From positions 92,168-156,167 of the forward strand of contig JAFGJD010000005.1 in NCBI GenBank assembly GCA_016929235.1: DNA of 64,000 bases, read 5' to 3'. The notes under the pieces are model-generated. The model had not been told where the DNA came from. It saw nothing but the letters and a program-made list of their open reading frames with translations, and did no database searches. Origin of the DNA: Candidatus Babeliales bacterium. Lineage in GTDB: Bacteria > Babelota > Babeliae > Babelales > JABCYS01. A program made the translations under genes and the position numbers. Below are positions 3,087 through 60,329 of the stretch, in pieces; within the stretch, counting starts at the first letter, position 1, and each line of letters opens with the position of its first letter.

Positions 3087-3290
3087 AGTATGAGTAGTAG
3101 ATTCAGATTCATTGTCGTTAAATAATGATTCGCCTGAAAATTGTCGCTAATGAATGCCTTCATGATACAGAGTTGTTTCCAGTTGGATCGTCTGGTTGAA
3201 AGGGTGATATTAGTGATGAGGTAAATGTTTGTATTAGGTATTGAACTAAGAGTATATTTTTAATAAAGACCGTACTATATGGAGGTTACT

Positions 3291-3707
3291 ATGAAAAGAA
3301 TGATCGTTTGGGTGATAGCGATCAGTGGTGTTTGTCATGCTTTGCAATGGGAGTTGGCAGACGAAGCAGCTCTTGATAGAGCGATAGAAAGGGTTGCATC
3401 ACGTGATGAAGCGTATAGGGTTGACGCACTAGGAATTCCGTTGATCATAGGAATGATAAAAAGATGTGTTCGTACACACGCGGATCCAGACTATCAACGC
3501 TTGGAGAGAGTTCTACGACATGGTGTGTACCGTGTGTATCAGGGTGTTCCATTGTATAGAGTTGCCAAAGACATTGGTCTCGATGAGAGAGGCCGAGTCC
3601 TTCTAGAGAAAGTGTTACGTACACAAGATGCTCATCAAGAACGGGATACTCTTTTACGGACTGGGTGGAGGCGCTCGACATTAGCTATACTTGGTGAAAG
3701 AGATTAA
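3291..3707 (+). CDS. Hypothetical secreted protein
   Basis: GGAGG lies 5 nt upstream of ATG 3291. The N-terminus MKRMIVWVIAISGVCHA looks like a signal peptide. I recognised no family. Confidence 0.55.
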   Translation: MKRMIVWVIAISGVCHALQWELADEAALDRAIERVASRDEAYRVDALGIPLIIGMIKRCVRTHADPDYQRLERVLRHGVYRVYQGVPLYRVAKDIGLDERGRVLLEKVLRTQDAHQERDTLLRTGWRRSTLAILGERD

Positions 3708-28654: not shown

Positions 28655-28667
28655 CTTTTTCAAAGAC

Positions 28668-38071: not shown

Positions 38072-38553
38072 GAAAGCTCATATCGTTGTCCTCGTCGCTC
38101 AAGAACAAGTACCACATGAAGTAGATCATCCTGTCGCTTGAAACAACACTTTGCAACGTCATGGGCCATCGCAATCGAACGCTTCGTTAACCACTGATAT
38201 GCATGCACATCATACGTACCAACAATGCGACACAGTGTTCCACTATGCAGCTCCCACCCATAGGCACCATTATCGTTACTACAGATCATGCAGTCATCAA
38301 AGCAATATACTTCTCGTGCACGATGATAGTCCGCACAGATAACATCGTGAAGACGCAGGCAAACAGACTGCAGCTGAGAACGTGTGCATAAATCTTGGTA
38401 TGCAGGCACCATCTGCACAATACGCGTCAGGACCAGAACACAGACCATGCTGACCAATGCAAGATACACAATAACTTCAACAAGCGTTATACCAATACGA
38501 TTGTTGTTAATATCATGTCCTGCTCGCCATGTTTTAGAACGACCCATCGACAT
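38035..38553 (-). CDS. Minor pseudopilin (type II secretion / type IV pilus class)
   Basis: The class III signal is NRIG|ITLVEVIVYLALVSMVCVLVL, with Glu at +5. Confidence 0.6.
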   Translation of the reverse strand: MSMGRSKTWRAGHDINNNRIGITLVEVIVYLALVSMVCVLVLTRIVQMVPAYQDLCTRSQLQSVCLRLHDVICADYHRAREVYCFDDCMICSNDNGAYGWELHSGTLCRIVGTYDVHAYQWLTKRSIAMAHDVAKCCFKRQDDLLHVVLVLERRGQRYELSWDVVRRVGAVW

Positions 38554-38858
38554 CCTGGAATAACCTCTCCGGCATCGGTTACTACTGTTCTTTCATCCCA
38601 CACATACCTCGAAGCCACCCCTCGAGAAAGAATCGTTTTCCCTTGCAGGCGCTGCTCCAATAATGAACGCATCTGAATAAGAGAAAGCACGAGCCTCTCG
38701 TGTTCGTATTGGCGCATCATCAGACTCGCATACTGCTGTTGAATCAAAAGCCCGATCATGGTGAAAACACCAATAGCAATCATAACCTCTATAAGGAGAA
38801 AACCCTGAGTTTTACATTGACTTTGTAGCCTGCCACAGGTACGTTTACGTATGATCAT
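38487..38858 (-). CDS. Minor pseudopilin (type II secretion / type IV pilus class)
   Basis: The class III signal is KTQG|FLLIEVMIAIGVFTMIGLLI, with Glu at +5. It is the first gene of the pseudopilin-lnt operon. Confidence 0.65.
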   Translation of the reverse strand: MIIRKRTCGRLQSQCKTQGFLLIEVMIAIGVFTMIGLLIQQQYASLMMRQYEHERLVLSLIQMRSLLEQRLQGKTILSRGVASRYVWDERTVVTDAGEVIPGCRWVVLKHGEQDMILTTIVLV

Positions 38859-38910
38859 AATGTCCCCTCATAAAGCACTGGGGACATACTACTATGAGAG
38901 GAACTCCATT

Positions 38911-40623
38911 ATGAATATCTCATCAAAGATCAAACAGATTTTCTTTGTCGCACTCAGCCTTCTATACCTCAATTCAACAATCGAGGCACAACAAGGACCA
39001 AATCCAAACCTACAACAGTTTGCGGCCAATATGCCAATGCCTACCGAAGAGGAAATACAGGCAGCATCAGCCTTTCTTGAAGACTTCTTCAATAATATGA
39101 GTGATGAAGAGATGGCTGATTTTATGCAGTTTTATGAAGGATTTGTGCAGGATATCGAAAGCGGCAAAATCAAAGTAGAAGATATCTTTGGCCCATTACC
39201 CGAACAACCACCGGTTACGCCACAAGAGCCGAAAAAGCCCGAACCTCAAAACCTTCCTGAACAAAAACCGGCTCCGGTTACCCAGGATAATCTAAGAGAT
39301 AAAAAAGCAACTGCAGAAATAATCAAAAAACTAATCGCATCTATCACGTCACTCAAGACAAAAGCGGCAAGTTCTCACAAAGTGCTTACCACGATTGAGC
39401 CGTTATCAAAAGAAATTGATACTCTCGTGTACTATCTATATGCACTGGAAAAGCCAGAACATATCCAGCAACTTGTTACAGATAAAGAACTCATACCATT
39501 ACACGACCAGCTCAAGTCATTGCAACAAGTAATGGAACAATACGAACCACGACTTGCTATTCCTGAGTTTGGCATCGGCCCTCAAAATCCTCAAGAAAAA
39601 GAAGCCTCTAAAAAGGCTCTCAGCGAAATAATCAATGCATTCAAGAAAGCATTCTCTGCCGAAAATATATTGGAGAAGTTGGAGAAATTATTTGAAAAAT
39701 ATGAGCCAGAAATTTTAAAACAAAAAAAAGCAGCTGAAGATGCAGAGGAACGGGCAAAACAAGAACTTGCTGCTATGAAAGGATGGCGCCAAGACCCTTC
39801 TCGCGTTGCACCAGAACCTAGAGAACGTAACTATCCAACGCGCTACTCAGATCGCGGGTCATACGGAGGAGGATACCAGGACTACAGTGTACCTTCTGTA
39901 GGTAGCGGTTCTATACAACCGCCACGCCAGTTCAGTGGTGCTCCATCATCGCTGCCACCGGCACCAAAAACATCTACTCCAACGGTCGTAGGTTCACAAA
40001 CGCATCAACTTCCCGCTCCACCAGAAACAAAGCCATCGGCAAAGAAATCCGAACCTGAAAAAACAAAGATTGAGACACCAGCGGAAGATCATCTGATTAC
40101 AAATAAGCTGACAGATCTTAAAGAGGCTCTAGGTGATGCAAGTAAGGCTGCTACTGAAGTCAACAAAACAACAAAAAACGATCTACCTATGTACCTCATA
40201 ACAAACAGCACAACAGCAGACGAAAAACAGGCAAAAGAAATAAATAAGAAACTCGAAACGTGTATTGAATCACTTACCGATGCAAAGAAATACAAAAAGA
40301 GCGTAGAATCTCGCATCGAATCAGCTAAACGTTCGGACTATACCAGCAAAGTAAATGAAACAATGATGAGGGTTCAACCATCACTCAAGCACCTCTATGA
40401 CTCATTGTACAATGCACTAGATAACTATACCCCCACCGTTCAAGCTCGACACATGGGATATGAGATCAAGGGGGTAAAGAAGCTTACCGACAGAAATCTG
40501 ATTGAGTCGTTCCAAGAATTGTATGAGGATCTCTATAATCCTCCACAAAAAGCACAACGAAAAGAAAAGAGTAAGAAAGTAGCTGCGCCGGAACCTGTTA
40601 AAACTATGGAGGAAATGAGCTGA
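38911..40623 (+). CDS. Hypothetical secreted protein with Pro/Lys/Glu-rich linkers (570 aa)
   Basis: The signal peptide is MNISSKIKQIFFVALSLLYLNSTIEA. Low-complexity PEQPPVTPQEPKKPEPQNLPEQKPAP and PPAPKTSTPT segments sit between helical regions. It is divergent from the pseudopilin operon. Confidence 0.6.
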   Translation: MNISSKIKQIFFVALSLLYLNSTIEAQQGPNPNLQQFAANMPMPTEEEIQAASAFLEDFFNNMSDEEMADFMQFYEGFVQDIESGKIKVEDIFGPLPEQPPVTPQEPKKPEPQNLPEQKPAPVTQDNLRDKKATAEIIKKLIASITSLKTKAASSHKVLTTIEPLSKEIDTLVYYLYALEKPEHIQQLVTDKELIPLHDQLKSLQQVMEQYEPRLAIPEFGIGPQNPQEKEASKKALSEIINAFKKAFSAENILEKLEKLFEKYEPEILKQKKAAEDAEERAKQELAAMKGWRQDPSRVAPEPRERNYPTRYSDRGSYGGGYQDYSVPSVGSGSIQPPRQFSGAPSSLPPAPKTSTPTVVGSQTHQLPAPPETKPSAKKSEPEKTKIETPAEDHLITNKLTDLKEALGDASKAATEVNKTTKNDLPMYLITNSTTADEKQAKEINKKLETCIESLTDAKKYKKSVESRIESAKRSDYTSKVNETMMRVQPSLKHLYDSLYNALDNYTPTVQARHMGYEIKGVKKLTDRNLIESFQELYEDLYNPPQKAQRKEKSKKVAAPEPVKTMEEMS

Positions 40624-41505
40624 TTAGCGCCACCCGATGTAATGCCAGATTCCGCCAGTCTCGGAAGGTTCTCCTTGAAGTTGCCGAGTGAGGGCTTCGT
40701 TGTCACGTTGAAGCTGTTCGTTCATTGCTCGTAGCTCTTGTTCCTCAACTGCAACTCTTTCTCGTGCTTCCCGCTCTGCATCGCGTCCCCGTCTGTCAGC
40801 TGCACCAATTTGCGCCAACGCTCTTTCAGTTAGTTGCCTAATCTCTTCACGAGTAGCACGTCGAACATCCTCAAGCTCTTCTTGTCTTTGTACCAATTGT
40901 TGTGAGAGGGAAACACACTGTCTCCCAAGGGCCTCTCGACTTCGATGAGCTCTTTCTCGTTCGTCAACGGCTCTTACGGCCACGTCTTGAGCCCCATCGC
41001 GTTCTCTGCGAGCTTGCTCAGCTTCCTGCATATGCGCCTCCGCCCGAGTGAATAATGCATCCTGTACTTGCTGAAACGCGCCGATATTAAGATCTCTATC
41101 TACTACATCAGATCTTAGCTGCCTTTTTTCCTCACGTAAGCCGCGTATCTCCCGAACTTGATCAGCGATTGTTCTACGGTAGGATCTTTTATCGTAGGAA
41201 TTTTTTGCTAACCACCCCATGGCGATTATACATGCACCAGATAAAACATAATGCTCCTGTATATCTTCCGTGGCCTGCAGGAAAAACTTATTGAGAGCAA
41301 CGCTTGCCGTTTGAGGAAAGGATACCACCCCGTTCCAGAGCGATGCAGCTTTATCGGCAAGTGATTGAGTGTGTGCTGCAAGGGCATGTCCACCTTGACC
41401 ATCACTCTGGATGGACAAACCAAGAACAGACTTGTCGTGATTAGAGTCCTCACCGTATCCATATACAGGGAGAACCGCTAAACTTAGGAGAACCAATCGT
41501 TTCAT
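40624..41505 (-). CDS. Bitopic membrane protein with ~190-aa Arg/Glu-rich coiled-coil tail (family member)
   Basis: The signal peptide is MKRLVLLSLAVLPVYGYG and the internal hydrophobic segment is SGACIIAMGWLA. The tail follows: KRSYRRTIADQVREIRGLREEKRQL...RQEELEDVRRATREEIRQL... Two hand-counted 60-nt samples gave 52-58% GC. Confidence 0.6.
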   Translation of the reverse strand: MKRLVLLSLAVLPVYGYGEDSNHDKSVLGLSIQSDGQGGHALAAHTQSLADKAASLWNGVVSFPQTASVALNKFFLQATEDIQEHYVLSGACIIAMGWLAKNSYDKRSYRRTIADQVREIRGLREEKRQLRSDVVDRDLNIGAFQQVQDALFTRAEAHMQEAEQARRERDGAQDVAVRAVDERERAHRSREALGRQCVSLSQQLVQRQEELEDVRRATREEIRQLTERALAQIGAADRRGRDAEREARERVAVEEQELRAMNEQLQRDNEALTRQLQGEPSETGGIWHYIGWR

Positions 41506-41609
41506 GTAGCATCCTAGAATCATTATTATAACTTCCATTTAGTACTCTAGAGGCTACCTGAAAGGCTATTCCTGGTCAAAAGCCAGCAACAACCCATCTA
41601 TCATGGCTG

Positions 41610-42419
41610 CTAAGGCAGCGCGTCTACTACTTCTAACATCGCTCTAAGGGACTCATCCACCGCATTACCGCCTGGAATAACCTCTGCACCGCCGGCATTT
41701 TTCGTATGTTCTGCCTCAACTGCATCAAGTCTGCGGCGAAACTCTCGATTTTCTTTCACAAGTTTATCGTAATTTACTAATAAAGCTGTCACTGCACCTT
41801 CAATAGACGCATCTGAACCCCTAATACCACCTTGAGAAACAGACCTTACAAGTGTCCCGCCTGGGGGATAGTGCGCCCCTTCACGACGTTCTTCTCTGCG
41901 TAACTCAACGTGTTCATCGCGGTTAGATCGCCACCGAGCAACCAAGATCCCTGCCAAGATGCCAATCCCGCCAACAAGACCAGCGACTTTACGACTAATG
42001 GTCGGCAGCATAGCCTGAACTTGGGCAAGATGAAATCGCCAACGCGCAGCCATAGACGCATTATCGGGAAGATAGCCTATCCCGCTAGCACTGGACATTG
42101 AAGTGACCGCCGTATCTTGGGATGCTGTTGTGACATCGAATAAGTTTGCATAGGGTGATATTGCCTCCACTGCCATTCCACTCATATCACGAGAAGGAAT
42201 ATCCTCTACTGCCTCCGCTTGGATCTCTTTTAGTGCATCTTCAAGCGCAGCCTCACATTGCTCGGACACCTCAGATTCTAGGCTCACGGCTGTTTGTTCG
42301 TTTGTAACCGTTTTTTTACGTGGAATCAGCACGGCTTGTTCATGTCCTATATGACAACTGCAGCGCGCCTCAACCTGCCCACACATCAAACTCATCATAA
42401 CTAGCAATATTACAAACAT
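41610..42419 (-). CDS. Bitopic membrane protein with charged helical tail (family member)
   Basis: The signal peptide is MFVILLVMMSLMCGQVEA and the ectodomain is acidic. The TM is VAGLVGGIGILAGILVA, followed by RWRSNRDEHVELRREERREG... Confidence 0.6.
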   Translation of the reverse strand: MFVILLVMMSLMCGQVEARCSCHIGHEQAVLIPRKKTVTNEQTAVSLESEVSEQCEAALEDALKEIQAEAVEDIPSRDMSGMAVEAISPYANLFDVTTASQDTAVTSMSSASGIGYLPDNASMAARWRFHLAQVQAMLPTISRKVAGLVGGIGILAGILVARWRSNRDEHVELRREERREGAHYPPGGTLVRSVSQGGIRGSDASIEGAVTALLVNYDKLVKENREFRRRLDAVEAEHTKNAGGAEVIPGGNAVDESLRAMLEVVDALP

Positions 42420-42473
42420 TGCGCCCTCCTGGTTACTCGCTCTTGACCGTTCGCATATTGTAAAAAAGGCGAA

Positions 42474-45281
42474 CTAGTTTGAAACCACTTCCTCACACCT
42501 CTGGCATAATCCATGCTCGTGCAACGATATGTCCCACTGCCAGCATCGTGGGCATTTTACTCCATCTGCATGCTCAACTGCAACCGCTACCCCAGAAAGA
42601 ACCGTTGCTTTAAGGCCCTGGGCACGGTCCACAAACATAAGTTGCGATACAATACACCACTCCTTTATAGACCGCATATATGCATCACCAAACGAATCAA
42701 ATAATTGCTTGAGCGGCGCGAGCTCTTTTCTACTCCAATCACAATGCACTGTGACTTTGGCATCAAGCGAATGTTTAACAACACCCTCTTCACGCTTCAA
42801 CTCAATCGCCTTGAGTACAACAGCGCGAAACTCATGGAACAACTCCCATTGCTTTTGTCGCTTACTATCAAAACGATACATAGCCGGAACTTCTGTAAAA
42901 TTCTGTTCATGAATCGAACACAACTTATTGCTTTGATAATGGTCAGAAATTAATTCAGACGTAAATGACAGTACCGGAGCAATGACATGCGTCAATGTAT
43001 CAAGAATATGCCATACAACTGTCTGCGCCGAGCGACGTTTGTGACCGCCCGCTTGCTCGACATACAAACGATCCTTGATAATGTCTAAATAAAACGAACT
43101 CAACGACCGGGCACTGTATTCCCCAAGAATATGAAACACCGCCGTAAAATCATACGCATCATATGCTTCTCGCAATGATGCATTCACACGCGCAAGTTCA
43201 TCGAGGGCATACTGATCTAATGGCAGCATCTTATCATATGGAACCGCGTCATGGTCATGCGAAAAGTCATACACATTCGAAAGTAAGAATCGACACGTGT
43301 TACGCACCTTGCGATACACCTCTTGTACATTCTTGAGCAATGTTGGTGATACAATCGCATCACCTTCAAACGAGATGCTGGATACCCATAAACGTAGGCC
43401 ATCTGTTCCCAACTGCTTGATAATGTCATCCGGAGCAACAACGTTACCGAGCGACTTGGACATCTTTTTGCCATGCTCATCCACCGTGAACCCGTGCGTT
43501 ACCACGGAGCGATAACACGGTTCATTCGAGAGCACTAAACTCGTTAACAAGGAACTTTGGAACCATCCACGGTGTTGATCAACCCCTTCAAGGTACATGT
43601 CTGCTGGATACCCAAGCTCAGGATTATCCTGTAGCACTGCATAGTGACTCACACCGGAATCAAACCACACATCAAGAATATCCTGTTCTTTGATGTACTC
43701 ATCAGGTGTATTCCCTTGTTCACGTAATGCATCGGGGAAAATATCTTTGATCAAAACCGTATCCCAATACTCGATACCATGTCGATACACCCCGGCCGCA
43801 ACGCGCTCAACAAGTTGCGCATCAATATACGCCTTGCCCGTCTGCGTGTGCACAAGCGCTGGGATCGGAACACCCCATACGCGTTGACGCGAGAGACACC
43901 ATTCAAGTCTGTTTTGCACTGAAGCCTTTAAGAAATTTTTAGAACGTTCCGGAATAAATGTCACCGTATCAATTGCTTTAAGCGCACGTTCACGAAGATC
44001 ACCCTGCGACAGGTCACAGAACCACTGACTCGTTGCACGGAATATCAATCCGTTACGGCAACGCCAACAATGTGGATACGAGTGACGAATACTCCCCTTG
44101 TACATAAGCATGCCATTACCAGCAAGAGCCTTGATCACCCATCCTTGCGCATCGTTGATCGACATGCCTTCGAGCTCTTTTGGCATAATGCCACTCGTGT
44201 ACTTACCGTCTGGAGATAATGGTGAAAAAATCTCAAGGCCATAGCGAACACCCATCTCATAATCTTCAGGACCACATCCGGGAGCGCTATGCACACATGC
44301 TGTTCCATCATCAAGTGATACAAATCCATCAGCAAGCACGGGTACTGTTCGAGTGGTATCAAATGGATGGACAAGCGTTGCATTCACTAATTGTTCTGCA
44401 GGAACCTCAGCAACAACTTTTTTCTCAATGCCCATCGTATCACAGACTGCATCAGCACACGGAGCACCAACAATGAAGTACACGCCATCATGTTCAAGAA
44501 TCTGATACGTTGTTTTAGGACGAATGAATACTGCGCGATTGAGCGGCAAAGTCCATGGCGTTGTTGTCCAGATCAGCATACTGACTGGTTTTCCCGCTAG
44601 TTCTGGGAGATGGTTCTTGATTGCGTCATCGGTTAATGCAAAACGCACATAGATAGATGGATCTTTGCGATCAGAATATTCGATCTCTGCGGTTGCGAGC
44701 ACTGTCTCACATGATGCACACCACGGCACTGTTTTATTTTTCTTTTCAATGTATCCCTGCTTCACAAACGAACCGAATGCGCGCAAGATAGCCGCTTCGT
44801 ATCGTGGGTCCATTGTTTCATATGGATGAACCCAGTCCATTAGTACACCAAGTTGCTTAAACTCATGACGCTGGATATCAATCCATTTTTTTGCATAGGC
44901 ACGACATGCTTTCTTGAGGTCTTGTGAATCCAAATTTGGATGCTCTTGTGTCACTTTCAGCTCAATTGGCAGACCATGGCAATCCCAACCTGGCGTAACC
45001 GGAACGTGTTTTCCGCTCATGCGCTGTGACTTGGCAACCATGTCCTTAAGGATCTTATTGTACGCATGCCCGAGATGAATGTGACCGTTCGCGTAGGGAG
45101 GCCCGTCATGAAGAAGGAACTTTTTCTTTCCTTTATTAAGGTCAAATGTCTTGCGTGACAGATCTTCCTTGTCCCAGCGCTGCAGAAGTTGCGCATCGGA
45201 TTCTTTATGGTTTGATCGGATTGGGAAATCAGTGCGGGGAAGATTGAGGGTGTCCTTGTAACTCACCTTGGTCTGCGCCAT
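42474..45281 (-). CDS. ileS: Isoleucyl-tRNA synthetase (type 1, C-terminal zinc-binding domain)
   Basis: The motifs are the HIGH motif PYANGHIHLGHAYN, KMSKS, and a C-terminal CPRCW...CQRC. Confidence 0.97.
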   Translation of the reverse strand: MAQTKVSYKDTLNLPRTDFPIRSNHKESDAQLLQRWDKEDLSRKTFDLNKGKKKFLLHDGPPYANGHIHLGHAYNKILKDMVAKSQRMSGKHVPVTPGWDCHGLPIELKVTQEHPNLDSQDLKKACRAYAKKWIDIQRHEFKQLGVLMDWVHPYETMDPRYEAAILRAFGSFVKQGYIEKKNKTVPWCASCETVLATAEIEYSDRKDPSIYVRFALTDDAIKNHLPELAGKPVSMLIWTTTPWTLPLNRAVFIRPKTTYQILEHDGVYFIVGAPCADAVCDTMGIEKKVVAEVPAEQLVNATLVHPFDTTRTVPVLADGFVSLDDGTACVHSAPGCGPEDYEMGVRYGLEIFSPLSPDGKYTSGIMPKELEGMSINDAQGWVIKALAGNGMLMYKGSIRHSYPHCWRCRNGLIFRATSQWFCDLSQGDLRERALKAIDTVTFIPERSKNFLKASVQNRLEWCLSRQRVWGVPIPALVHTQTGKAYIDAQLVERVAAGVYRHGIEYWDTVLIKDIFPDALREQGNTPDEYIKEQDILDVWFDSGVSHYAVLQDNPELGYPADMYLEGVDQHRGWFQSSLLTSLVLSNEPCYRSVVTHGFTVDEHGKKMSKSLGNVVAPDDIIKQLGTDGLRLWVSSISFEGDAIVSPTLLKNVQEVYRKVRNTCRFLLSNVYDFSHDHDAVPYDKMLPLDQYALDELARVNASLREAYDAYDFTAVFHILGEYSARSLSSFYLDIIKDRLYVEQAGGHKRRSAQTVVWHILDTLTHVIAPVLSFTSELISDHYQSNKLCSIHEQNFTEVPAMYRFDSKRQKQWELFHEFRAVVLKAIELKREEGVVKHSLDAKVTVHCDWSRKELAPLKQLFDSFGDAYMRSIKEWCIVSQLMFVDRAQGLKATVLSGVAVAVEHADGVKCPRCWQWDISLHEHGLCQRCEEVVSN

Positions 45282-45398
45282 GGAGTAATTCCTTTTATCT
45301 ATACAGGCAAATGTTAGTTCAGTATAAGAACTTTTGGCAGTTTATACAAAACTGATATAGTGTTGTCCATCTTATAAAAAAACAGTCTAAAGGCATCC

Positions 45399-46760
45399 AT
45401 GAATAACCAATACCATACCTACGGAATCTTGGGTTTTGGCGTCGTCGGAAAATCAGTGCTCAGACATCTCTCAAATCAATCTCCTGATCGCATTGCCGTG
45501 TATGATTCCCGCAAGCTCTCTCAGGACGAGAACACAATAATCAGGGCAAACAATGGTGTTGTGTATCAACCTAGTGCACTGGAATCTTTTTTGATTGCCT
45601 GTGAACACATTATCCCAAGCCCTGGCATTGCACTACATAGGTATGACAAGTATAGCCACAAATGGCTGAGCGAACTTGATCTGTTTGCACATGCATGGCA
45701 CAAACATGTCATTGCCATTACAGGAACAGTCGGCAAAACAACAACAGCAGCACTTCTCGCACACACACTTGAACATATAGGGGAACATGTCGGCTTAGGC
45801 GGGAATATTGGAACCCCAATGCTTGATCTGGTTTCTTGCCAGGAGACGTATGCCCTTGCTGTTCTAGAACTCTCAAGTTTTCAGCTTATGCACATGAAAG
45901 AGTTTGCACCCGACATTGCAGTACTCCTCAATCTGTACCCCAATCACTTGGATTATCATACATCCTACGATGAATACAAAGCAGCAAAACTTAGACTATT
46001 TACCAACCAAAGCGAAAAACAAAATGCAATCATCCCGCTATTCCTAAAGGATGCATTGAAGGGCAAAAAAGCACACACAATTATAGTCACCCCCAACGAT
46101 CAGCTTTGTGAAGAAGAGCAACAAATTACTTTTGCCGAGCATAATGGCAATGTCACAAAGAAGAATAAGGGACATAAGGAAAGCATTATCAGACTTGGAT
46201 CTATACCCCCGTTCACTGTTACTGAAAACCTCGTCTTTATCACCGCAATACTTGATACTCTAAAGATTGATCCAATGCATCTAATTAATGCAGCATCAAC
46301 CTTTCCACCACAGGAACATCGTATGGAATACGTGTTAGAGCGCGATGGTGTCACCATCTACAATGACTCTAAGGCAACATTACCTGAGGCAACGCTTGCT
46401 GCACTCAATCGTCTGGGCAATCGCCCTACTATTCTTATCATTGGAGGATTATCTAAGGGAGTTGATCGCACGCCATTTTTTACGAACCTACCACCATCAG
46501 TACGTCACATTATTTGTTTTGGCAAAGAAGCAGAGAAGCTCGGCCATATTGGATCACAGTTTCATACGCCATGCACAATCAGCGCCTCGTTAGAGACGGC
46601 TATACGTGTGGCCTGGGAGACTAAACAACCAGGAGATATAATTCTTTTTTCACCGGGCGGCTCAAGTTTTGATCTTTTTAAAAACTATCAAGAACGAGGC
46701 AATTGTTTTAAGGCACACGTTATGAGACAATGGAGCCCTCAGGAGGTTGTAGGGTTATAA
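45399..46760 (+). CDS. murD: UDP-N-acetylmuramoylalanine--D-glutamate ligase
   Basis: The motifs are the N-terminal Rossmann GFGVVGKS, the P-loop ITGTVGKTTT, and the Mur ligase middle and C-terminal domains. Confidence 0.9.
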   Translation: MNNQYHTYGILGFGVVGKSVLRHLSNQSPDRIAVYDSRKLSQDENTIIRANNGVVYQPSALESFLIACEHIIPSPGIALHRYDKYSHKWLSELDLFAHAWHKHVIAITGTVGKTTTAALLAHTLEHIGEHVGLGGNIGTPMLDLVSCQETYALAVLELSSFQLMHMKEFAPDIAVLLNLYPNHLDYHTSYDEYKAAKLRLFTNQSEKQNAIIPLFLKDALKGKKAHTIIVTPNDQLCEEEQQITFAEHNGNVTKKNKGHKESIIRLGSIPPFTVTENLVFITAILDTLKIDPMHLINAASTFPPQEHRMEYVLERDGVTIYNDSKATLPEATLAALNRLGNRPTILIIGGLSKGVDRTPFFTNLPPSVRHIICFGKEAEKLGHIGSQFHTPCTISASLETAIRVAWETKQPGDIILFSPGGSSFDLFKNYQERGNCFKAHVMRQWSPQEVVGL

Positions 46761-46792
46761 TATAAACGTACCAACATTATTGGGGGCCTCCG

Positions 46793-47329
46793 ATGAAACA
46801 GGTTATTTTTTACCTTTCTTTGTTAAGTGTTTTACAGGTATGTGCTGAACATGATCACGACTCTACGAAGCGCTCACTTCCTACAACCCTCTCTTCCCAG
46901 GTCTCTTCATGCCCACTCTATGCAACGAGTATTGTCATGCTGACATGCGTCGGAATACTTGTGAACGGGCGAACAAAATATGCAACCAAAGAAGAACTCC
47001 AAGAACTATCCAAGCCCTGTGACCATTCCAACCTACTCACTGCCAATGCCCTCCAGGAACAGTTAGCCGCAGATGGTTTTATAAAAAAAGTAGCTGATGA
47101 AGTTAGACAAGAGATAGCCACAAGAATTACTGGCGACCTCATAAGCACGTCTATAATGGCAGCGAAAGATAGTGTTCGTGTGATTGCCCAATCTAATATG
47201 GCCGCATTAAATGAAGTTGCTATGGAACATCTTGCAGAACTAGAGGCACGTCTCAAAGCGCTTGAACAACCAAACAAACCAAAGCAACGCCGAATGAGCT
47301 GGCATGGAGACGGCACGCCACACCAATGA
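46793..47329 (+). CDS. Bitopic membrane protein with helical tail (family member)
   Basis: The signal peptide is MKQVIFYLSLLSVLQVCA. The TM is LYATSIVMLTCVGILV, followed by NGRTKYATKEELQEL...LAELEARLKALEQ. Confidence 0.55.
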   Translation: MKQVIFYLSLLSVLQVCAEHDHDSTKRSLPTTLSSQVSSCPLYATSIVMLTCVGILVNGRTKYATKEELQELSKPCDHSNLLTANALQEQLAADGFIKKVADEVRQEIATRITGDLISTSIMAAKDSVRVIAQSNMAALNEVAMEHLAELEARLKALEQPNKPKQRRMSWHGDGTPHQ

Positions 47330-47446
47330 ATCTGAACAATACTCTTAATTTAGAATATCCTCAGCCGACTTGCCTTAACACTCGTTAGACCTTAGACTCA
47401 TATGAACAGTGTATTTTCAACTTATTCTATCGAAGAAGGAAATCGG

Positions 47447-48079
47447 ATGAGATCATCAAAACTACTCTTGTTTACACTTGCAACAGTGCTTCTAACGCCG
47501 CAAGTTCTTTTCACCAATGATATTGAAAATGATCTAGATTATACGCAGCCGGCCTCCTCGAGTAGTGGCTCTTGGATGCCTTACATTATGTGCGCTGGCC
47601 TAAGTATTGTAGTATATCGACAACACAACAGGATTAATGCAATTGGCCAAAGGCGCTTCGAGACCGTGGCTAAAATACATGATGCTCATGCGCAGATCGA
47701 TACATTAGCGCACGCCATAGACGGAGAAGACGACCCTGAAGGGGGACATTTGCCTGGATTACGAGAGCAAGCACAACATATGCAACGGGGCTTAAACCAC
47801 CTCTGGACCGTCGTCATACAAGGAGAAGCTAATCGAGCAGGAAGAATTATTAGGAAGCCATTAGCAACTTACGTGGCTGAAAATGATCAAGCTCTGCAAG
47901 AACACGGGGTGCAACTTGGTCGACTTGGTCGTAACATAGAGGCAATACATGCCCAACAACAAGCTCTCTCGCAAAGGCTAGAAGAATTAGCTGAACAACG
48001 TGAACGAAGCGCTGAACCCGTCACAGATGCGCTACGTCAATTGAACGGAGAAGAAGATTCTGAAGAGGATGCTTCTTAA
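47447..48079 (+). CDS. Bitopic membrane protein with helical acidic tail (family member)
   Basis: GAAGGA RBS precedes the start, and the signal peptide is MRSSKLLLFTLATVLLTPQVLFT. GSWMPYIMCAGLSIVVY is followed by RQHNR and then AQQQALSQRLEELAEQRERS. It shares GxWMPxIxC with 49777-50184. Confidence 0.6.
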   Translation: MRSSKLLLFTLATVLLTPQVLFTNDIENDLDYTQPASSSSGSWMPYIMCAGLSIVVYRQHNRINAIGQRRFETVAKIHDAHAQIDTLAHAIDGEDDPEGGHLPGLREQAQHMQRGLNHLWTVVIQGEANRAGRIIRKPLATYVAENDQALQEHGVQLGRLGRNIEAIHAQQQALSQRLEELAEQRERSAEPVTDALRQLNGEEDSEEDAS

Positions 48080-48107
48080 TAAGCTTTAAAAACATCAAGC
48101 TCATAGG

Positions 48108-48142
48108 CACGGGAAGCATTGTGCTTCCCGTGTATTCTTTTT
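48108..48142 (+). terminator. Rho-independent terminator
   Basis: An 11-bp stem, CACGGGAAGCA (48108-48118) with TGCTTCCCGTG (48122-48132), has a 3-nt loop and is followed by TATTCTTTTT. Confidence 0.85.
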
Positions 48143-48216
48143 AATACACCACACCCTAGATAAAACTGATCAGTTATGTAATAGTACACACAAGAAAGTA
48201 TCACCTCTATGTCTAT

Positions 48217-49332
48217 GTGTGTATGTTTAGAGAACGAAGACTATTACAAGCAGATCTTAATATTTTTTTGAGCCTTGTCACAACACTGATTGTGATCGGC
48301 TTCCTTTTCATTTACTCATCGAGTTCTGTCTATGCATTAGAAAAACTCGGAAGCGCACATTACTTTGTTAAAAAACATTCTTTTGGACTACTTCTGGGTA
48401 TTATCGCGGGATGCGTTACACGGTATTTACCACTTGACCTCATCAAAGTAACGAGCCCCCTACTTTTTTTTACGTCACTGATCCTAACTACCATGACCAT
48501 GCTCACACCATTTGCACAACGCATTCACGGCTCCAGCAGATGGCTCAACTTAGGTGGCCTTGTGTTCCAACCAAGTGAACTTTTGAAAATGTCACTCTTG
48601 ATTTATATCGCCTATTTTTTAACGAAGAAAGAGCGCTATAAAAAATCATTCATGTATGGATACCTACCTTTTCTCATCATTTTAGGAATCAGTTGCGGGC
48701 TACTCCTGAAGCAACCTGACTTTGGACTCGCCGCCACCTTGGGCGCAACAACGTTTATTCTTTTGTTCATCGCACAGTTTAATACATCGTACCTCGTCAT
48801 AACCGTTGCCGCCGCTCTTCCAGGCCTGATTGGGCTTGTGTACTTCTTCCCCTACCGTTGGAAACGAATCATGACATTCCTTAATCCTTGGCAGGATCCT
48901 CAAGGTGCTGGGTTCCAGATCATCCAGTCACTGATTGCGATTGGCTCAGGGAGCATGTGGGGAGCAGGGATCTCACACTCCAAACAAAAGTTCTTTTATT
49001 TACCCATGCAGCATACTGACTTCATCTTCTCTATTATTGCCGAAGAGACCGGTTTTGTTGGATCAACTTTAATCGTCATCCTGTATGTACTTTTTACCTA
49101 CTATGGAATGCGCATCGCATGGCGCATGAAGGATACATTCTCTGTCTTTGTGACTCTTGGATTTGTAATCCTAACTAGCATGCAAGCTGTTATCAACCTC
49201 CTAGTTACCACTGGTTTGGTGCCAACCAAGGGCGTCGGGTTACCCTTCATCAGCTATGGGAACTCAGCCCTGATCTGTTCCCTTGCCATGATTGGATTGA
49301 TCATAAATTGCACCAATGAGCAACGGCTCTAG
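48217..49332 (+). CDS. ftsW: SEDS-family peptidoglycan glycosyltransferase FtsW/RodA (FtsW by proximity to murD)
   Basis: It has about 10 TM helices and the family motifs FQPSELLKMSLLIY, KQPDFG, WQDPQGAGFQIIQSLIAIGSG, HTDFIFSIIAEE and TKGVGLPFISYG. The start is GTG 48217 or ATG 48223. Confidence 0.9.
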   Translation: MCMFRERRLLQADLNIFLSLVTTLIVIGFLFIYSSSSVYALEKLGSAHYFVKKHSFGLLLGIIAGCVTRYLPLDLIKVTSPLLFFTSLILTTMTMLTPFAQRIHGSSRWLNLGGLVFQPSELLKMSLLIYIAYFLTKKERYKKSFMYGYLPFLIILGISCGLLLKQPDFGLAATLGATTFILLFIAQFNTSYLVITVAAALPGLIGLVYFFPYRWKRIMTFLNPWQDPQGAGFQIIQSLIAIGSGSMWGAGISHSKQKFFYLPMQHTDFIFSIIAEETGFVGSTLIVILYVLFTYYGMRIAWRMKDTFSVFVTLGFVILTSMQAVINLLVTTGLVPTKGVGLPFISYGNSALICSLAMIGLIINCTNEQRL

Positions 49333-49426
49333 ATAGCCCCTAAAAGGCCAAAACCATTTGATCGAAAGCATCTTTACGGCTATCTTGGAAAGTAGAAAAT
49401 GAGATCTACAACAAGAATAAGGCATC

Positions 49427-49732
49427 ATGAAACTAAAATACTATGCTGTGGCATTCCTAGTCCTCATGGCGAATCACACCGCGCCAACAATGGACGAGCA
49501 AAAGGATATTCCTCAGGAAAAAATTATCCAAAAAAGCTCTCAGTCGACACAGTTCAACCACGTGGCCAGGTTTATAATGATTTCGGAAATTTTATGTGTT
49601 GCACTTTTGTCTGTTGCCATTGCAAAAGGCCGCAATAAACTTTCAAGAATTCTCCATGAGAAGGACGGGCTCAAGATGCAAATCAATCAACAAAGGGGCG
49701 AGCTCTCCGCATTAAGAGACGACAACACATAA
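49427..49732 (+). CDS. Small bitopic membrane protein (family member)
   Basis: The signal peptide is MKLKYYAVAFLVLMANHTA. The TM is FIMISEILCVALLSVAIA, followed by KGRNKLSRILHEKDGLKMQINQQRGELSAL. Confidence 0.5.
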   Translation: MKLKYYAVAFLVLMANHTAPTMDEQKDIPQEKIIQKSSQSTQFNHVARFIMISEILCVALLSVAIAKGRNKLSRILHEKDGLKMQINQQRGELSALRDDNT

Positions 49733-49776
49733 AGACTTCTCCGTGTAGGATAAAAAATCAGATAAAGGAATTTCTT

Positions 49777-50184
49777 ATGAAGTGCTCATGGCTCATCCTA
49801 ATCATCGCAGTGGCATTCGCACCGACAATATACACAATGCCTGAACAATCACCCATACGCGATCTCCTTTATGACTCTCCTATGAGCATATCTATAGCTC
49901 CCCAGATTACCTTACAGCCTGACCTCTCACCTCAACCTCGTCGAGGATGGATGCCTGAGATTTTGTGCATCAGTACCGTAGCAGCAACACTTGTGGGAGC
50001 TCTACGAGCTCTTAATGCCGACCAAAAGCAATGGGATCTACATTTTGGTCAAGCCAGAGAATACTATCACTTGGCTCAGGACGGCATTGCATTAATCATC
50101 GGAAAAACAAAAACAGCCAAGACAAATCAAAGTCGACTTCATAAACAAGCAAGCGATCTGCAAAAAGCAACCGAATCTTTGTAA
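49777..50184 (+). CDS. Small bitopic membrane protein (family member)
   Basis: The signal peptide is MKCSWLILIIAVAFAPTIYT and the ecto segment is Pro-rich. RRGWMPEILCISTVAATLVGAL is followed by a helical tail. Confidence 0.55.
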   Translation: MKCSWLILIIAVAFAPTIYTMPEQSPIRDLLYDSPMSISIAPQITLQPDLSPQPRRGWMPEILCISTVAATLVGALRALNADQKQWDLHFGQAREYYHLAQDGIALIIGKTKTAKTNQSRLHKQASDLQKATESL

Positions 50185-50185
50185 A

Positions 50186-51685
50186 TTATTTCCAGTTCAT
50201 CACTAGATCAATAAGTAATCGAACGCCCGCTCCGGTAGCACCAGTTCGATAGTAACTCATACCCGGCACATCAAACGCTGTTCCTGCAATATCCAAATGT
50301 ACCCAAGGTGTTGTACCAACAAATGCGTGCAAAAAGAAAGCAGCTGTTGTTGCACCCGCTTTGTATGCAGGCTTTCCAATGTTACAGATATCTGCAACTG
50401 GCGTCTGTATCGCAGGAAGATAATCGTCATCCATAGGAAACCGCCATACACGATCACCAGAGCTATGGGCTGCTACCTCAACACGACGGGCAGCACTATC
50501 ATGCTTGCTGAACATACCGGTAAAAAATGGCCCGAGTGCATATTGGCATGCACCTGTGAGGGTTGCTAAATCAATCATGAAATCAGGTTCGTAATGCTTA
50601 ACAGCATACGAAAGGGCATCCGCGAGAATCAACCGACCTTCCGCATCAGTATTACGGACTTCAGCAGTCTTGCCGTTGTAGAACGTTATAATATCACCTG
50701 GTTTTGCTGCAGCACCACTTGGAAGATTTTCTGCTGCAGGAGCAACCATAACGACATTGACCTTCGGTTGTAGTTGTGCAATTGCTTGCATAGCACTGAT
50801 TACAGCTGCCGCGCCTGACATATCTTCTTTCATGGTCTCCATAGCATTTGCAGGCTTCAAACTCAAACCACCAGAATCGAATGTGATTCCCTTACCAATC
50901 AATGCAACTGTTGGCGCTTTCGCAGAGACCTTATATTCCATGATGATGAGCTTACAGTCCTGTTCGGAACCGGCTGATACTGCAGCAAGTCCTCCCATAC
51001 CCATCTTCTTAATCTGTTCTTCACTCAACACCTTACATGAGATGTTGTGCTGACGCGCAATCGATTCTGCGTGTTTTGCAAGCACAGCAGGCGTCAAATC
51101 ACTTGGTGGCGTATCAATTAACATACGCGCATTGTTAACCGCCTCGCCAATCACTTCTCCAACTGAAAGCGCCTTCTTGACTTGTGTTACATATGATCCA
51201 ACACACAAAGTTATGGAACGCTTAATTTTTGAGGGCTTGTCTTTGGTAAATCGATCAAAACGATAATCTGCCATATGTAATGTGGTTGCGGTATGTTGGA
51301 TAACGTCATCATAGGATTCCTTGAAACACGATGCCTCAGGAATCTGGAGCGCAATAGACGTAAGCTTATAACATTCGGCAGTGCGTATCAGCTTCCCAAG
51401 TGCACGTCGATATGATTCAAGTGTACAATGTAACCCCCTTTTTTTCCCCATACCAACAAGAATTATGTGTATCAGCTTTTTGTTATGCAATGCCGACACA
51501 ACACAATGTGTTTGCGCACTACCTTTGAATGCTTTCTGTTTCACCGCCTGAGCAAGTATTGGGAATTTTGCATGAACTGTTGCGGAAATATCTTTTGTTA
51601 CTGAGAACCCTTCATATACACACAGCGCATACGCGTGTGCATTGGCACTTGTTACTGTTTTACTGGAAAGAGTTAAGCAAATCAT
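50186..51685 (-). CDS. pepA: Leucyl aminopeptidase (M17)
   Basis: The motifs are VGKGITFDSGG and NTDAEGRLILADAL. The start ATG overlaps the stop of the giant gene in an ATGA. Confidence 0.93.
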   Translation of the reverse strand: MICLTLSSKTVTSANAHAYALCVYEGFSVTKDISATVHAKFPILAQAVKQKAFKGSAQTHCVVSALHNKKLIHIILVGMGKKRGLHCTLESYRRALGKLIRTAECYKLTSIALQIPEASCFKESYDDVIQHTATTLHMADYRFDRFTKDKPSKIKRSITLCVGSYVTQVKKALSVGEVIGEAVNNARMLIDTPPSDLTPAVLAKHAESIARQHNISCKVLSEEQIKKMGMGGLAAVSAGSEQDCKLIIMEYKVSAKAPTVALIGKGITFDSGGLSLKPANAMETMKEDMSGAAAVISAMQAIAQLQPKVNVVMVAPAAENLPSGAAAKPGDIITFYNGKTAEVRNTDAEGRLILADALSYAVKHYEPDFMIDLATLTGACQYALGPFFTGMFSKHDSAARRVEVAAHSSGDRVWRFPMDDDYLPAIQTPVADICNIGKPAYKAGATTAAFFLHAFVGTTPWVHLDIAGTAFDVPGMSYYRTGATGAGVRLLIDLVMNWK

Positions 51686-56985: not shown

Positions 56986-57148
56986 GTACCACACCCTTTT
57001 TCTTGGATAAAACAAACACTTAAAACTGCAACAAACATAAAACAGCTCTGGTTTGAAATGCAAGAAAAGAAAAAGTTATCCCGCATGTACCAGTAGCACA
57101 CACGGGACGACCAAAATAGGGTGGGTAAGAAAACTTTTTATAATGCGG

Positions 57149-59066: not shown

Positions 59067-59678
59067 TTACTCATTCCAATATGGTTGGGGTTCTTCAAAA
59101 AGACCGCCACTAACTGGCACATATCTTGTTCCCGCTGGAGACGGAAGATGATAACTTTCAGTAGTACGATCGTAGATTGCCCCTCTGGGCAAAGTGATCC
59201 TATGTCCCATCTCATTCAGAATGTACCGCCCATCTTCCATAGCTGGCATATGGCGACTATACATATCAACATCAAAATTCCTATTCGGTTTAATACCTCG
59301 ATGTTGCCCGGTCACTTTGTAAAGAAATGCAGCAGCCATCAAAAGATATGATCCCCAGAGCGCAGCTTTGAACCACGAGATACCACCGTCCTCAGCTATA
59401 CCAATATCCGGCAAATTTGACATGACAGTCTTTTGAATAGGCTCAGGAATAGTGATACCGCCATCAGTAATGGAACCAATGGTATGGGTAGTTGGATCAA
59501 AATTTTGATACTTCTCTAAAATTCTCGCTGTTTCTGGATGAACGGTATGCGATTGCGTGTAGTATGATCCCTTGTAAAGTACATTCGATGAACCAGAACT
59601 TTGTTCAAGCAATTGCTGATATGAAGCTGATACTCCCATAACAGACGCTACCATGCATATTAATCTTAGCTGCTTCAT
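59067..59678 (-). CDS. Hypothetical bitopic membrane protein, paralogue A (G-x-YYTQ-x-H-x-x-HPET-x-RILEKYQ ectodomain motif)
   Basis: The signal peptide is MKQLRLICMVASVMGVSA. The conserved motif is KGSYYTQSHTVHPETARILEKYQ. The TM is ALWGSYLLMAAAFLY, and the tail is Pro/Tyr-containing. Confidence 0.6.
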   Translation of the reverse strand: MKQLRLICMVASVMGVSASYQQLLEQSSGSSNVLYKGSYYTQSHTVHPETARILEKYQNFDPTTHTIGSITDGGITIPEPIQKTVMSNLPDIGIAEDGGISWFKAALWGSYLLMAAAFLYKVTGQHRGIKPNRNFDVDMYSRHMPAMEDGRYILNEMGHRITLPRGAIYDRTTESYHLPSPAGTRYVPVSGGLFEEPQPYWNE

Positions 59679-59699: not shown

Positions 59700-60329
59700 C
59701 TATCGCGGCAAGGTTGCCTCATCACTCACAGGAACACCACGGATTTCCCTAGGTTCCGCAACTTGAACTTCATCTAAACCTGACCAGAAGTCTGACCATC
59801 GCCCTGGCATAGGTATTTTTTCGAATGGGGGCCTATATTCAACACCGGCACCTGTATCCCGAGGATCCACATACTCCTCGCCACTTGAATATACTGCTTC
59901 AACGTCAGACTCTTCTCCAGCTGCAAACTCAAAATCCTCATGGTACGGACTACGACGCTGTGCACGTTGTGCTAGCTTTGACTGAAGAAGACCCAAAACT
60001 ACAATCGCACCAGCACTAATTAGCTTAGACAACCAATATGAGTCAACTGCTCCATACCCTTTATCTTGAGACGAAACTACACTTGTGTCACCCTGCAGCC
60101 TCTCTCTTCCGGAAGCAACACCCTGCTGGTATTTCTCTAAAATTCTTTCTGTTTCTGGATGTAACTCATGGTGCTGAGTATAGTAGGGGCCTTCCTTGAT
60201 TGTGACGGCCCTTTCCCCATGGCTTTCGAACAGATCTTGATACCCTGCATGGGTCAATGTAGAAACGCAAACACACGCCCAGAGAAGGGCATAGAATTTT
60301 GTGATGTGTCTTTTTCTAGTTCGCTTCAT
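59700..60329 (-). CDS. Hypothetical bitopic membrane protein, paralogue B
   Basis: The signal-like segment is FYALLWACVCVSTLTHA. The conserved motif is EGPYYTQHHELHPETERILEKYQ. The TM is LISAGAIVVLGLL, and the tail is acidic. Confidence 0.6.
   Translation of the reverse strand: MKRTRKRHITKFYALLWACVCVSTLTHAGYQDLFESHGERAVTIKEGPYYTQHHELHPETERILEKYQQGVASGRERLQGDTSVVSSQDKGYGAVDSYWLSKLISAGAIVVLGLLQSKLAQRAQRRSPYHEDFEFAAGEESDVEAVYSSGEEYVDPRDTGAGVEYRPPFEKIPMPGRWSDFWSGLDEVQVAEPREIRGVPVSDEATLPR

Follow-up and report, generated by a model that had tools for sequence, protein, structure and literature searches.

The Dependentiae (TM6) are a phylum of obligate intracellular parasites of protists with very few cultured members. 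Bacteria seldom have bitopic membrane proteins that combine a cleaved signal peptide with a cytoplasmic tail. For one member of the phylum, Chromulinavorax destructans, the genome report states that 44% of the coding sequences (CDS) carry a signal peptide as called by Phobius and that this set is enriched in ORFans (PMC6561590, Deeg et al. 2019). Here we describe a class of small genes predicted to encode this uncommon layout in a 64,000-nucleotide (nt) stretch of contig JAFGJD010000005.1 (hereafter the window, meaning the whole stretch analysed), whose proteins have NCBI entries named Candidatus Babeliales bacterium (locus tags JW872_..., Dependentiae/TM6). The genes are labelled A–G for seven open reading frames (ORFs) pointed out in an earlier reading made from the letters alone (the sequence-only reading) and J and K for two added here, I being a doubtful case (Table 1), and they amount to about one gene in seven over the 64 kb. 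We favour, with modest confidence, the view that they encode fast-diverging, lineage-specific bitopic inner-membrane proteins which form an architectural class within the signal-peptide-rich ORFan fraction of this phylum.

At least nine members are real genes, as shown by CDS annotation, codon usage and Shine-Dalgarno-like sites. All seven ORFs of the sequence-only reading were found at the positions in Table 1 and all are CDS at NCBI ("hypothetical protein"); all seven also fit the design described below, and the list had missed K (59067–59678) and J (59700–60329). Codon-usage log-odds trained on 15 conserved window genes put the members at about +0.09 to +0.18 bits per codon when read in the annotated frame and below zero in each of the five others (for A, +0.117, positive in the annotated frame only). 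Housekeeping genes scored 0.13–0.28, and shadow ORFs behaved oppositely to the members. AGGA/AAGGA-type Shine-Dalgarno-like sites lie 5–10 nt upstream of the members, as they do for ileS, rplI and recA. Longer starts for A (41538) and D (47402) were dropped for 41505 and 47447 on the basis of such sites (AAGGAA for D) and the NCBI calls. Most members are arranged in tandem pairs (B-A, C-D, E-F and K-J), the first three being co-directional and tightly spaced behind ileS, murD and ftsW.

The members share one order of parts. Each begins with an uncharged hydrophobic stretch of 11–20 residues, preceded in most by Lys or Arg; the hydrophobic core (h-region) is 11–15 aa long, the length found in signal peptides, in 7/9 members, and AxA-type cleavage sites could be read from the sequences of 6/9. 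The segment that follows (the ecto segment) is net acidic or neutral, and the short ones consist of 44–61% Ser, Asp, Pro, Gln and Thr versus 26% in housekeeping proteins. Hydropathy scans detected a single internal hydrophobic stretch per protein, 18–126 aa past the N-terminal signal-like segment, and in 8/9 members the 15 residues after this helix contained more Lys plus Arg than those before it (six of A–G; F was tied at 2 and 2). The small ectodomain and cytoplasmic tail predicted in the sequence-only reading fit these h-region lengths, cleavage sites and positive-inside bias, and we infer an inner-membrane N-out/C-in topology in which most members lose the signal peptide by cleavage and the tail is cytoplasmic.

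The tails are 35–193 aa long in the window and 25 to ~980 aa in relatives. Their R/(R+K) ratio is 0.80–0.92 in A, B, D, G, J and K (0.92 in A) compared with 0.39 in housekeeping proteins. AlphaFold monomer modelling, which the earlier reading had proposed as a check, predicted long helical tails for both proteins modelled: from the single sequence, AlphaFold2 built the tail of A into one 173-residue helix (residues 106–278, predicted local distance difference test score >90 for ~160–270) and gave D helices at 43–93 and 103–201. The idea that all tails are coiled coils held for part of the set. Heptad periodicity exceeded that of shuffled sequences only in D (score 0.88; 0/200 shuffles) and E (3/200). 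A, in which opposite charges pair 24 times at i/i+4 spacing (14.9 ± 3.3 in shuffles), looks more like a charged single helix, and the tails of J and K, with 17–19% Pro plus Gly, look disordered.

The design was counted with a crude census rule: after a signal-like h-region a protein had to contain one and only one further hydrophobic window, with two or more Lys or Arg residues at its end, and a charged tail no shorter than 25 aa. The rule matched 11/63 window genes and none of the 72 shadow ORFs in the window (Fisher p = 1e-4); in 150 kb of E. coli K-12 it picked out one of 125 ORF-called genes (p = 3e-5 versus the window). The design is thus commoner here than in either comparison set; 6/189 genes in other Babeliales loci also matched. 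The 11 window matches include the doubtful I, and A, D and K, which have marginal helices, were missed. The rule also caught the multi-domain proteins at 16924–18498, 25018–26517 (prolyl-tRNA synthetase, by Pfam), 51682–57063 and 60539–62041. The curated count of nine members still differs from E. coli (p = 3e-4). The sole E. coli match was YgfX (recorded as 'protein YgfX'), a two-helix inner-membrane protein.

The members are an architectural class, not a sequence family. The sequence-only reading had spoken of an expanded family; all-vs-all blastp and phmmer searches found no significant relationship among A–G (best blastp E 0.09–0.3), and Smith-Waterman scores against shuffles stayed at z <3 for window pairs, except for C-G, where hydrophobic segments were aligned. 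J and K are the sole demonstrable paralogue pair among the members (phmmer E = 4e-12), with the common ecto motif YYTQxHxxHPETxRILEKYQ. D and F had been called true paralogues from a motif GxWMPxIxC. D reads GSWMPYIMC and F reads RGWMPEILC, so that the common motif is WMPxIxC (5/7 residues). The encoding DNA is identical at 17/21 nt, including three synonymous positions, with weak flanking similarity (QPxxS). A pattern search for WMPxIxC matched twice in the window and never in 100 shuffles, a post hoc test, and gave no match in any of 25 fetched loci. Over the whole proteins D and F gave blastp E = 0.3 and Smith-Waterman z = 2.8, with 3/100 shuffles as good, so their paralogy is plausible, not established.

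For D and B the lack of homologues extended to large collections: a search of 5.8 billion clustered proteins with these two returned only each query's own 90% cluster, D's being the NCBI entry and B's a Logan gene call. The ten sequences looked up, which represent nine proteins, each belong to a 90%-identity cluster with one or two entries, and every entry comes from the NCBI record or the Logan assembly of this organism. A J/K profile yielded a single true relative (E = 1.4e-15), P0013, originating from a JGI metagenome, in which the ecto motif and membrane helix of J are conserved and the tail is divergent. When a J/K/P0013 profile was run with HMMER against 1.84 billion representatives, the only addition was P0014, which was rejected as a spurious repeat match to a 503-aa tandem-repeat protein. 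As the sequence-only reading had it, no described family was recognised: no member matched Pfam, NCBIfam or PHROGs above cut-off, PDB sequences gave nothing significant, and Foldseek with the D model against PDB gave only E >2. The one PADLOC match was weak, A aligning with RmuC at 18 bits (E = 2e-4) over profile positions 13–198 of 439, the N-terminal part, which is the helix-and-coil region of RmuC. A also scored 12.5 bits against Pfam DivIC (cut-off 28.9), and E scored 12.7 bits against NCBIfam ftsL_broad (E = 0.09, cut-off 42.45). We attribute the weak matches to DivIC, FtsL, PspA, Rz-like spanin and RmuC to shared helix-plus-coil composition.

Base composition gave no indication of a foreign origin. 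The sequence-only reading described the long members as rich in guanine plus cytosine (GC), and A and B are modestly raised (0.49–0.50 versus 0.44–0.46 in their neighbours). Their third-position GC (GC3) is 0.38–0.39, the genome norm, and their first-position GC (GC1) is 0.63–0.67; the excess comes from first codon positions and reflects a composition rich in Ala, Arg, Glu and Gly. GC3 is 0.35–0.42 in A–D, F, G, J and K, and 0.49 in E, as in ftsW. Since GC3 is at the genome norm and only GC1 is raised, horizontal transfer was rejected as the source of the higher GC.

Next, the corresponding loci of relatives were compared. An exact copy of the window's IleS occurs only on a Logan contig of run SRR13394437. 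The nearest IleS relatives are Babeliales/Babelota metagenome-assembled genomes with 54–64% identity, and IleS-anchored scans of GTDB genomes and JGI metagenomes found no relative closer than 64%, so the window represents a rather isolated Dependentiae lineage. The gene order pepA-ftsW-murD-ileS-H is retained in many Babeliales loci (H is the protein encoded at 38851–40623), and same-design genes that cannot be aligned with the members fill the same gaps. Between ileS and H there are four such genes in a row in locus L002 and one each in L009, L013 and L016. The murD-ftsW gap holds one in L002 and one in L016, and one to two lie downstream of ftsW in L010 and L012. In L004, L017 and L010 ileS directly adjoins H, and in L004, L017 and L011 murD-ftsW or ftsW-pepA are adjacent with no same-design gene between them. 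The counterparts of C (L002 7959–8441 and L016 789–1280) are of like size and layout, with no alignable similarity to C. For A–F, no blastp (E ≤ 1e-3) or phmmer (E ≤ 10) match was found in the related loci, where phmmer searched 579 ORFs. Conservation in relatives was seen in position, design and, within one clade, a cysteine motif, and not as alignable matches to A–F. The four-gene run of L002 (12851–18080) exceeds the local expansion of the window, and one of its products is a coiled-coil protein of 1048 aa rich in Gln.

In a neighbour-joining tree of IleS the window falls into a clade with L002, L016, L009 and L013, and each of the five clade members has a gene for a signal peptide, membrane helix and tail directly 3' of ileS. 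In 4/5 of these genes a Cys-x-Cys (CxC) motif stands just past the predicted cleavage site (VEA|RCSC in B; GLA|RCRC, GLA|VCTC and LLS|VCTC in the others, which are L016 5743–6779, L009 3361–3876 and L013 13100–13684). The motif was present in only 1/136 other signal-peptide-like proteins of the window and 17 loci (141 in total; Fisher p = 1.6e-6). B and the L016 protein gave blastp E = 0.004 in a single pre-specified comparison. We conclude that B is the positional orthologue of the clade's ileS-downstream gene; given its position and the CxC of the clade, B is therefore inherited, its sequence having decayed to the plan and the two-cysteine motif, with a tail that varies from ~25 to ~980 aa. 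J and P0013 diverge in the same manner, the tail alone being free to change. A lipoprotein reading of the B-type CxC was rejected: the −1 residue is Arg or Val, which does not fit a lipobox.

That the members are non-functional or newborn ORFs, arisen by chance or de novo in intergenic slots, is scarcely credible in the light of these data. D and B, the two searched, are without homologues, slot occupancy varies among relatives, and the proteins contain low-complexity segments, as this explanation would have it. It is contradicted by the codon usage, which is in-frame only, and the Shine-Dalgarno-like sites, by the absence of the design from the 72 shadow ORFs, by the way the ORFs fill their slots, and by the retention of CxC across the clade and of the ecto motif and membrane helix in J, K and P0013.

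On the preferred reading of the members as a bitopic architectural class, a Sec-type signal peptide would start export and, in most members, be cut at an AxA-type site. The short, acidic, low-complexity N-terminal segment would remain periplasmic, and the single hydrophobic helix would halt transfer and anchor the protein in the inner membrane with the basic patch on the cytoplasmic face. The tail would remain in the cytoplasm, probably as a long single helix or coiled coil in A–E and G and as a disordered chain in J and K. The genes would occupy permissive slots directly 3' of housekeeping genes, with which they probably share transcripts, and would have spread by tandem duplication followed by divergence until the plan and a few short motifs persisted: the B-type CxC at the mature N-terminus, HPETxRILEKYQ and the membrane helix in J and K, and possibly WMPxIxC in D and F. 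Tandem duplication was seen in J/K and in a pair of genes of L010 (6487–6891 with 6931–7293), and old duplication is therefore a reasonable, though not demonstrated, origin of B-A, C-D and E-F. Their role would most likely be at the envelope or the host interface, not specifically in cell division.

Several observations weigh against this reading. The signal-peptide and membrane-helix calls are heuristic ones, made from hydropathy. The sequence-only reading had given every member the same complete set of parts, and a signal-like segment, ecto segment, helix, patch and tail are indeed present; the helices of A (15 uncharged residues, no 19-aa window reaching the hydropathy threshold of ≥1.6) and D (~15 hydrophobic residues) are marginal and the patch of F is weak. 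No role is apparent for a cytoplasmic rod of 200 to ~980 aa attached to so small an ectodomain. C, D, E and F show zero similarity to their positional counterparts in relatives, and these slots may have been filled by independent gain. Of the five member loci, three fall in a 9.6-kb stretch that includes ileS, murD and ftsW (post hoc p = 0.027), and a functional link to cell-wall genes is therefore conceivable. Cleavage sites are poor in D, E and F, and the N-terminal segments of F and G, at 18–20 aa, have the length of a membrane helix; some members may thus be two-helix hairpins. In such a topology variant, conceivable for F, G, D and E, the N-terminal segment would be an uncleaved helix, both ends would be cytoplasmic and the ecto segment would be a periplasmic loop; the only match of the E. 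coli census, YgfX, would be in keeping with it. We consider hairpins unlikely, as 7/9 h-regions are too short for a membrane helix, the small residues typical of a cleavage site occupy −3 and −1 in 6/9 members, the B-type CxC stands exactly at the predicted mature N-terminus in four lineages, and loops of 18–126 aa would be long and acidic.

The position of C, D, E and F beside murD and ftsW could also be taken as a hint that the members are accessory adaptors of cell division or peptidoglycan synthesis, co-transcribed with these genes, resembling FtsL/FtsB/DivIC or ZipA/EzrA and replacing FtsQ, FtsN and ZipA. The four genes are co-directional and tightly spaced with murD and ftsW, and the promoter-like site and hairpin (Table 1), both consensus matches, suggest that murD, C and D may form one transcription unit. 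Same-design genes occupy the murD-ftsW slot in L002 and L016 and the ftsW-pepA slot in L010 and L012, weak profile matches to FtsL (E) and DivIC (A) were obtained, and ftsQ, ftsN, zipA and zapB were reported absent from TM6 genomes (PMC4776705). However, the FtsL and DivIC scores are at noise level, far below their cut-offs, the predicted cytoplasmic tail is the opposite of FtsL/FtsB, and no globular domain of the ZipA or EzrA type is present. In addition, murD-ftsW or ftsW-pepA adjoin with an empty slot in L004, L017 and L011, the design is also seen in G, J and K, which are not near division/cell-wall (dcw) genes, and the lack of conservation would be unusual for partners of an FtsW that is 55–70% conserved. 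The division adaptors, and with them the divisome tethers of the sequence-only reading, are thus quite unlikely. A stronger version, to which we give very little credence, makes the members a Babeliales-specific, vertically inherited, hyper-divergent type I bitopic module tied to the ileS-murD-ftsW neighbourhood and replacing the lost FtsQ/FtsN/ZipA adaptors. If it were true, helical rods (25 to ~980 aa) with tiny periplasmic heads, such as the CxC, would constitute a new membrane-cytoskeleton linker kept by position and architecture, not by sequence.

The members might instead be host-directed effectors, released for example via outer-membrane vesicles and inserted in host membranes, as Inc proteins or mimics of eukaryotic type I membrane proteins would be, with the tail towards the host cytosol; we regard this as very doubtful. 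Signal peptide, ectodomain, membrane helix, basic stop-transfer patch and tail make up the classic eukaryotic type I plan, and the layout of the members matches it; their internal helices are only moderately hydrophobic, and fast evolution and lineage specificity are typical of effectors. However, a Sec substrate with a stop-transfer helix is expected to stay in the inner membrane, so that the members would have no route out of it, and their ecto segments lack the length and complexity that a folded exported domain would need. The bilobed two-helix domain that defines Inc proteins is absent, each member having one internal helix, and the window contains no type III or type IV secretion genes; the Inc-like effectors considered in the sequence-only reading find no support here. 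At the level of the phylum, intracellular parasites with very many signal-peptide ORFans and secreted ankyrin proteins are described (PMC6561590), in favour of this reading, and the core systems reported for TM6 are Sec, type II secretion and the type IV pilus (PMC4776705), which weighs against it. An ankyrin-repeat protein with a signal-like N-terminus (2376–3086, +) is encoded near G, as are two pentapeptide-repeat proteins (4494–6804, −), the first with a hydrophobic N-terminal segment; proteins of this type have been reported from the phylum as putative secreted effectors.

Table 1. Member genes, neighbouring genes and sequence elements in the window (lengths in amino acids; | marks a predicted cleavage site; SP, signal peptide; TM, membrane helix)
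Feature	Coordinates	Strand	Locus tag	Layout or remark
A, 293 aa	40624..41505	-	JW872_02735 (MBN1549554.1)	signal-like N-terminus (VYG|YG); 67-aa acidic ecto segment; marginal TM YVLSGACIIAMGWLA; basic patch KNSYDKRSYRR; 193-aa Arg/Glu/Ala/Gln-rich helical tail
B, 269 aa	41610..42419	-	JW872_02740	SP VEA|RCSC; 126-aa ecto segment; Gly-rich TM VAGLVGGIGILAGILVA; patch RWRSNR; 108-aa tail
C, 178 aa	46793..47329	+	JW872_02755	start 33 nt 3' of murD; SP VCA|EH; 18-aa Ser/Thr-rich ecto segment; TM at residues 37–57; NGRTK; 121-aa helical tail
D, 210 aa	47447..48079	+	JW872_02760	signal-like N-terminus; 19-aa acidic ecto segment; WMPYIMC into short TM; RQHNR patch; 153-aa tail with strong heptad periodicity
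E, 101 aa	49427..49732	+	JW872_02770	start 95 nt 3' of ftsW; weak signal-like N-terminus; 29-aa ecto segment; TM FIMISEILCVALLSVAIA; KGRNK; 35-aa heptad tail
F, 135 aa	49777..50184	+	JW872_02775	stop adjoins convergent pepA stop; 20-aa N-terminal hydrophobic segment; 37-aa Pro/Ser/Gln-rich ecto segment; WMPEILC into TM; weak basic patch; 59-aa tail
G, 148 aa	1464..1910	+	JW872_02520	18-aa N-terminal hydrophobic segment (SYA|DQ); 27-aa ecto segment; TM VPWLLLATGGGLSVAALLWYAAF; KTRR patch; 67-aa Arg-rich helical tail
J, 209 aa (new member)	59700..60329	-	JW872_02805	SP THA|GY; 69-aa ecto segment with GPYYTQHHELHPETERILEKYQ; TM LISAGAIVVLGLL; AQRAQRR patch; acidic Pro/Gly-rich tail
K, 203 aa (new member)	59067..59678	-	JW872_02800	tandem paralogue of J; same plan as J; ecto segment with GSYYTQSHTVHPETARILEKYQ
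I, 142 aa (doubtful member)	3279..3707	+		signal-like N-terminus; 11-aa hydrophobic stretch ALGIPLIIGMI; KRCVR; Arg-rich tail
ileS	42474..45281	-		context anchor; B then A downstream on the same strand, gaps ~55 and ~105 nt
murD	45399..46760	+		context gene; Pfam Mur_ligase_M, Mur_ligase_C, MurD_N
ftsW (FtsW/RodA/SpoVE family)	48217..49332	+		context gene; Pfam PF01098, E = 3.7e-98
pepA, M17 aminopeptidase	50186..51685	convergent with F		Pfam
Promoter-like site 5' of murD	45334..45361	+		TTGGCA, 16-nt spacer, TATAGT, TG extension; 10/12 consensus, consensus match only
Terminator-like hairpin directly 3' of D	48107..48133	+		12-bp stem then T run; consensus match only
DNA encoding WMPYIMC in D	47573..47593	+		pattern search
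DNA encoding WMPEILC in F	49948..49968	+		pattern search

Further features of the neighbourhood were recorded. H, a 590-aa protein with a signal peptide and a coiled coil (38851–40623, +), has no Pfam match and is found at 26–35% identity beside ileS in most Babeliales loci. It divergently adjoins three small genes (37649–38858, −) with prepilin-like N-termini, whose N_methyl match is below threshold (19.5 bits versus a cut-off of 21.2); because of this neighbourhood H may be an uncharacterised partner of type II secretion or the type IV pilus. Beyond pepA, a 1793-aa giant (51682–57063, −) begins with a signal-like N-terminus and an Ala/Gly/Glu/Arg-rich region and scores a signal peptide and one membrane helix in the census; its one full-length homologue is that of L002, the closest relative (33% identity over 1671 aa). 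The 219-aa signal-peptide protein at 57149–57808 (−) has no Pfam match and ends in a Tyr/Gly/Trp/Pro-rich C-terminus, YYGPYLGVSWGTPYYWYPYGYYGYYGRPGFYWGVGW. Beside J and K (60539–62041, −) lies a thioredoxin reductase-thioredoxin fusion (Pyr_redox_2 plus Thioredoxin), and its hydrophobic N-terminal segment suggests that it is membrane-anchored or exported. A ZapB-like protein (16251–16568, +; PF06005, 33.4 bits versus a cut-off of 31.5) is encoded directly 5' of ZapA (16565–16843, +; 51.8 bits); zapB was reported absent from all TM6 genomes compared (PMC4776705).

Between the start of dnaK (−, ~170) and G, a region of ~1.3 kb (170–1460) is without coding signal; the codon scores of its ORFs at 483–755 and 806–1348 are negative in all frames, and no tRNA or tmRNA was found there. 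It contains a 65% GC island (~430–770; the genome has 42% GC), after which AATTATAAGG is repeated three times in tandem (771–800). The island was rejected as a structured RNA, with no Rfam match even at E ≤ 1 and folding z-scores of −0.5 and −0.9. The sign of the GC skew flips at ~27–37 kb, where gene orientation turns from plus to minus and dnaN and recF are located (27527–29783); the flip may track the coding strand, not replication. dnaA was found at L025 137–1519, ~9–10 kb past the right end of the window. In ~8 kb rightward of the window, read from Logan contigs, three unannotated proteins were checked and none was of the design.

The member class by itself reveals no new mechanism. What B illustrates is that orthology can be traced by position, architecture and a two-cysteine motif where sequence search fails, and that apparent ORFans among 5.8 billion sequences can be old inherited genes. 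If confirmed genome-wide, the class would provide a testable subset of the Dependentiae signal-peptide ORFans as candidate envelope or host-interface proteins.

Compared with known systems, the members repeat the order of parts of the M13 gp8 procoat, which has a cleaved signal peptide, a short acidic outer segment, one helix and a basic cytoplasmic end. The procoat, however, is ~73 aa long, has a tail of roughly 10 aa and is encoded in a phage genome, whereas the members have tails of 35–193 aa, a chromosomal context and no significant PHROG match. Proteins with sorting signals (sortase LPXTG, PEP-CTERM, GlyGly-CTERM) similarly have a signal peptide and a helix followed by a basic cluster. 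In these, nothing follows the basic cluster, and a short recognition motif stands ahead of the helix; in the members, by contrast, a tail of 35–193 aa follows the patch and no common motif precedes the helix. FtsL, FtsB and DivIC are like the members in being small, with one membrane helix and a heptad helix directly after it; they are poorly conserved and often encoded in division/cell-wall gene clusters. Their N-terminus lies in the cytoplasm and lacks a signal peptide, and their coiled coil is in the periplasm; the signal-like N-terminus of the members and the basic patch after the helix predict, by heuristics, the reverse topology. ZipA, EzrA and the N-terminal region of RmuC have the N-out/C-in arrangement that is predicted for the members, followed likewise by a charged or coiled-coil cytoplasmic region. 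Their N-terminal anchor is uncleaved and they end in a globular domain (FtsZ-binding in ZipA, nuclease-like in RmuC); no member matched ZipA_C, EzrA or RmuC in Pfam or NCBIfam.

Chlamydial Inc proteins, like the members, are lineage-specific, fast-evolving membrane proteins of an intracellular bacterium, and many carry coiled-coil tails. They possess a bilobed hydrophobic domain, in which a short loop joins two helices, and leave the cell by type III secretion. The members differ: a single internal helix follows the Sec-type signal at a distance of 18–126 aa, and type III secretion genes were not found in the 64 kb or the ~8 kb read beyond it. The signal-peptide ORFans of the Dependentiae are documented as a proteome-wide statistic, and the part of the report available to us does not single out a sub-class with signal peptide, helix, patch and tail, positional conservation or tandem pairing (PMC6561590). 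These ORFans and the members occur in the same phylum, have no recognisable homologues and are interspersed among the housekeeping genes of a reduced genome; the ORFans carry Sec-type signals (PMC6561590), and the N-termini of the members are predicted, by heuristics, to be such signals.

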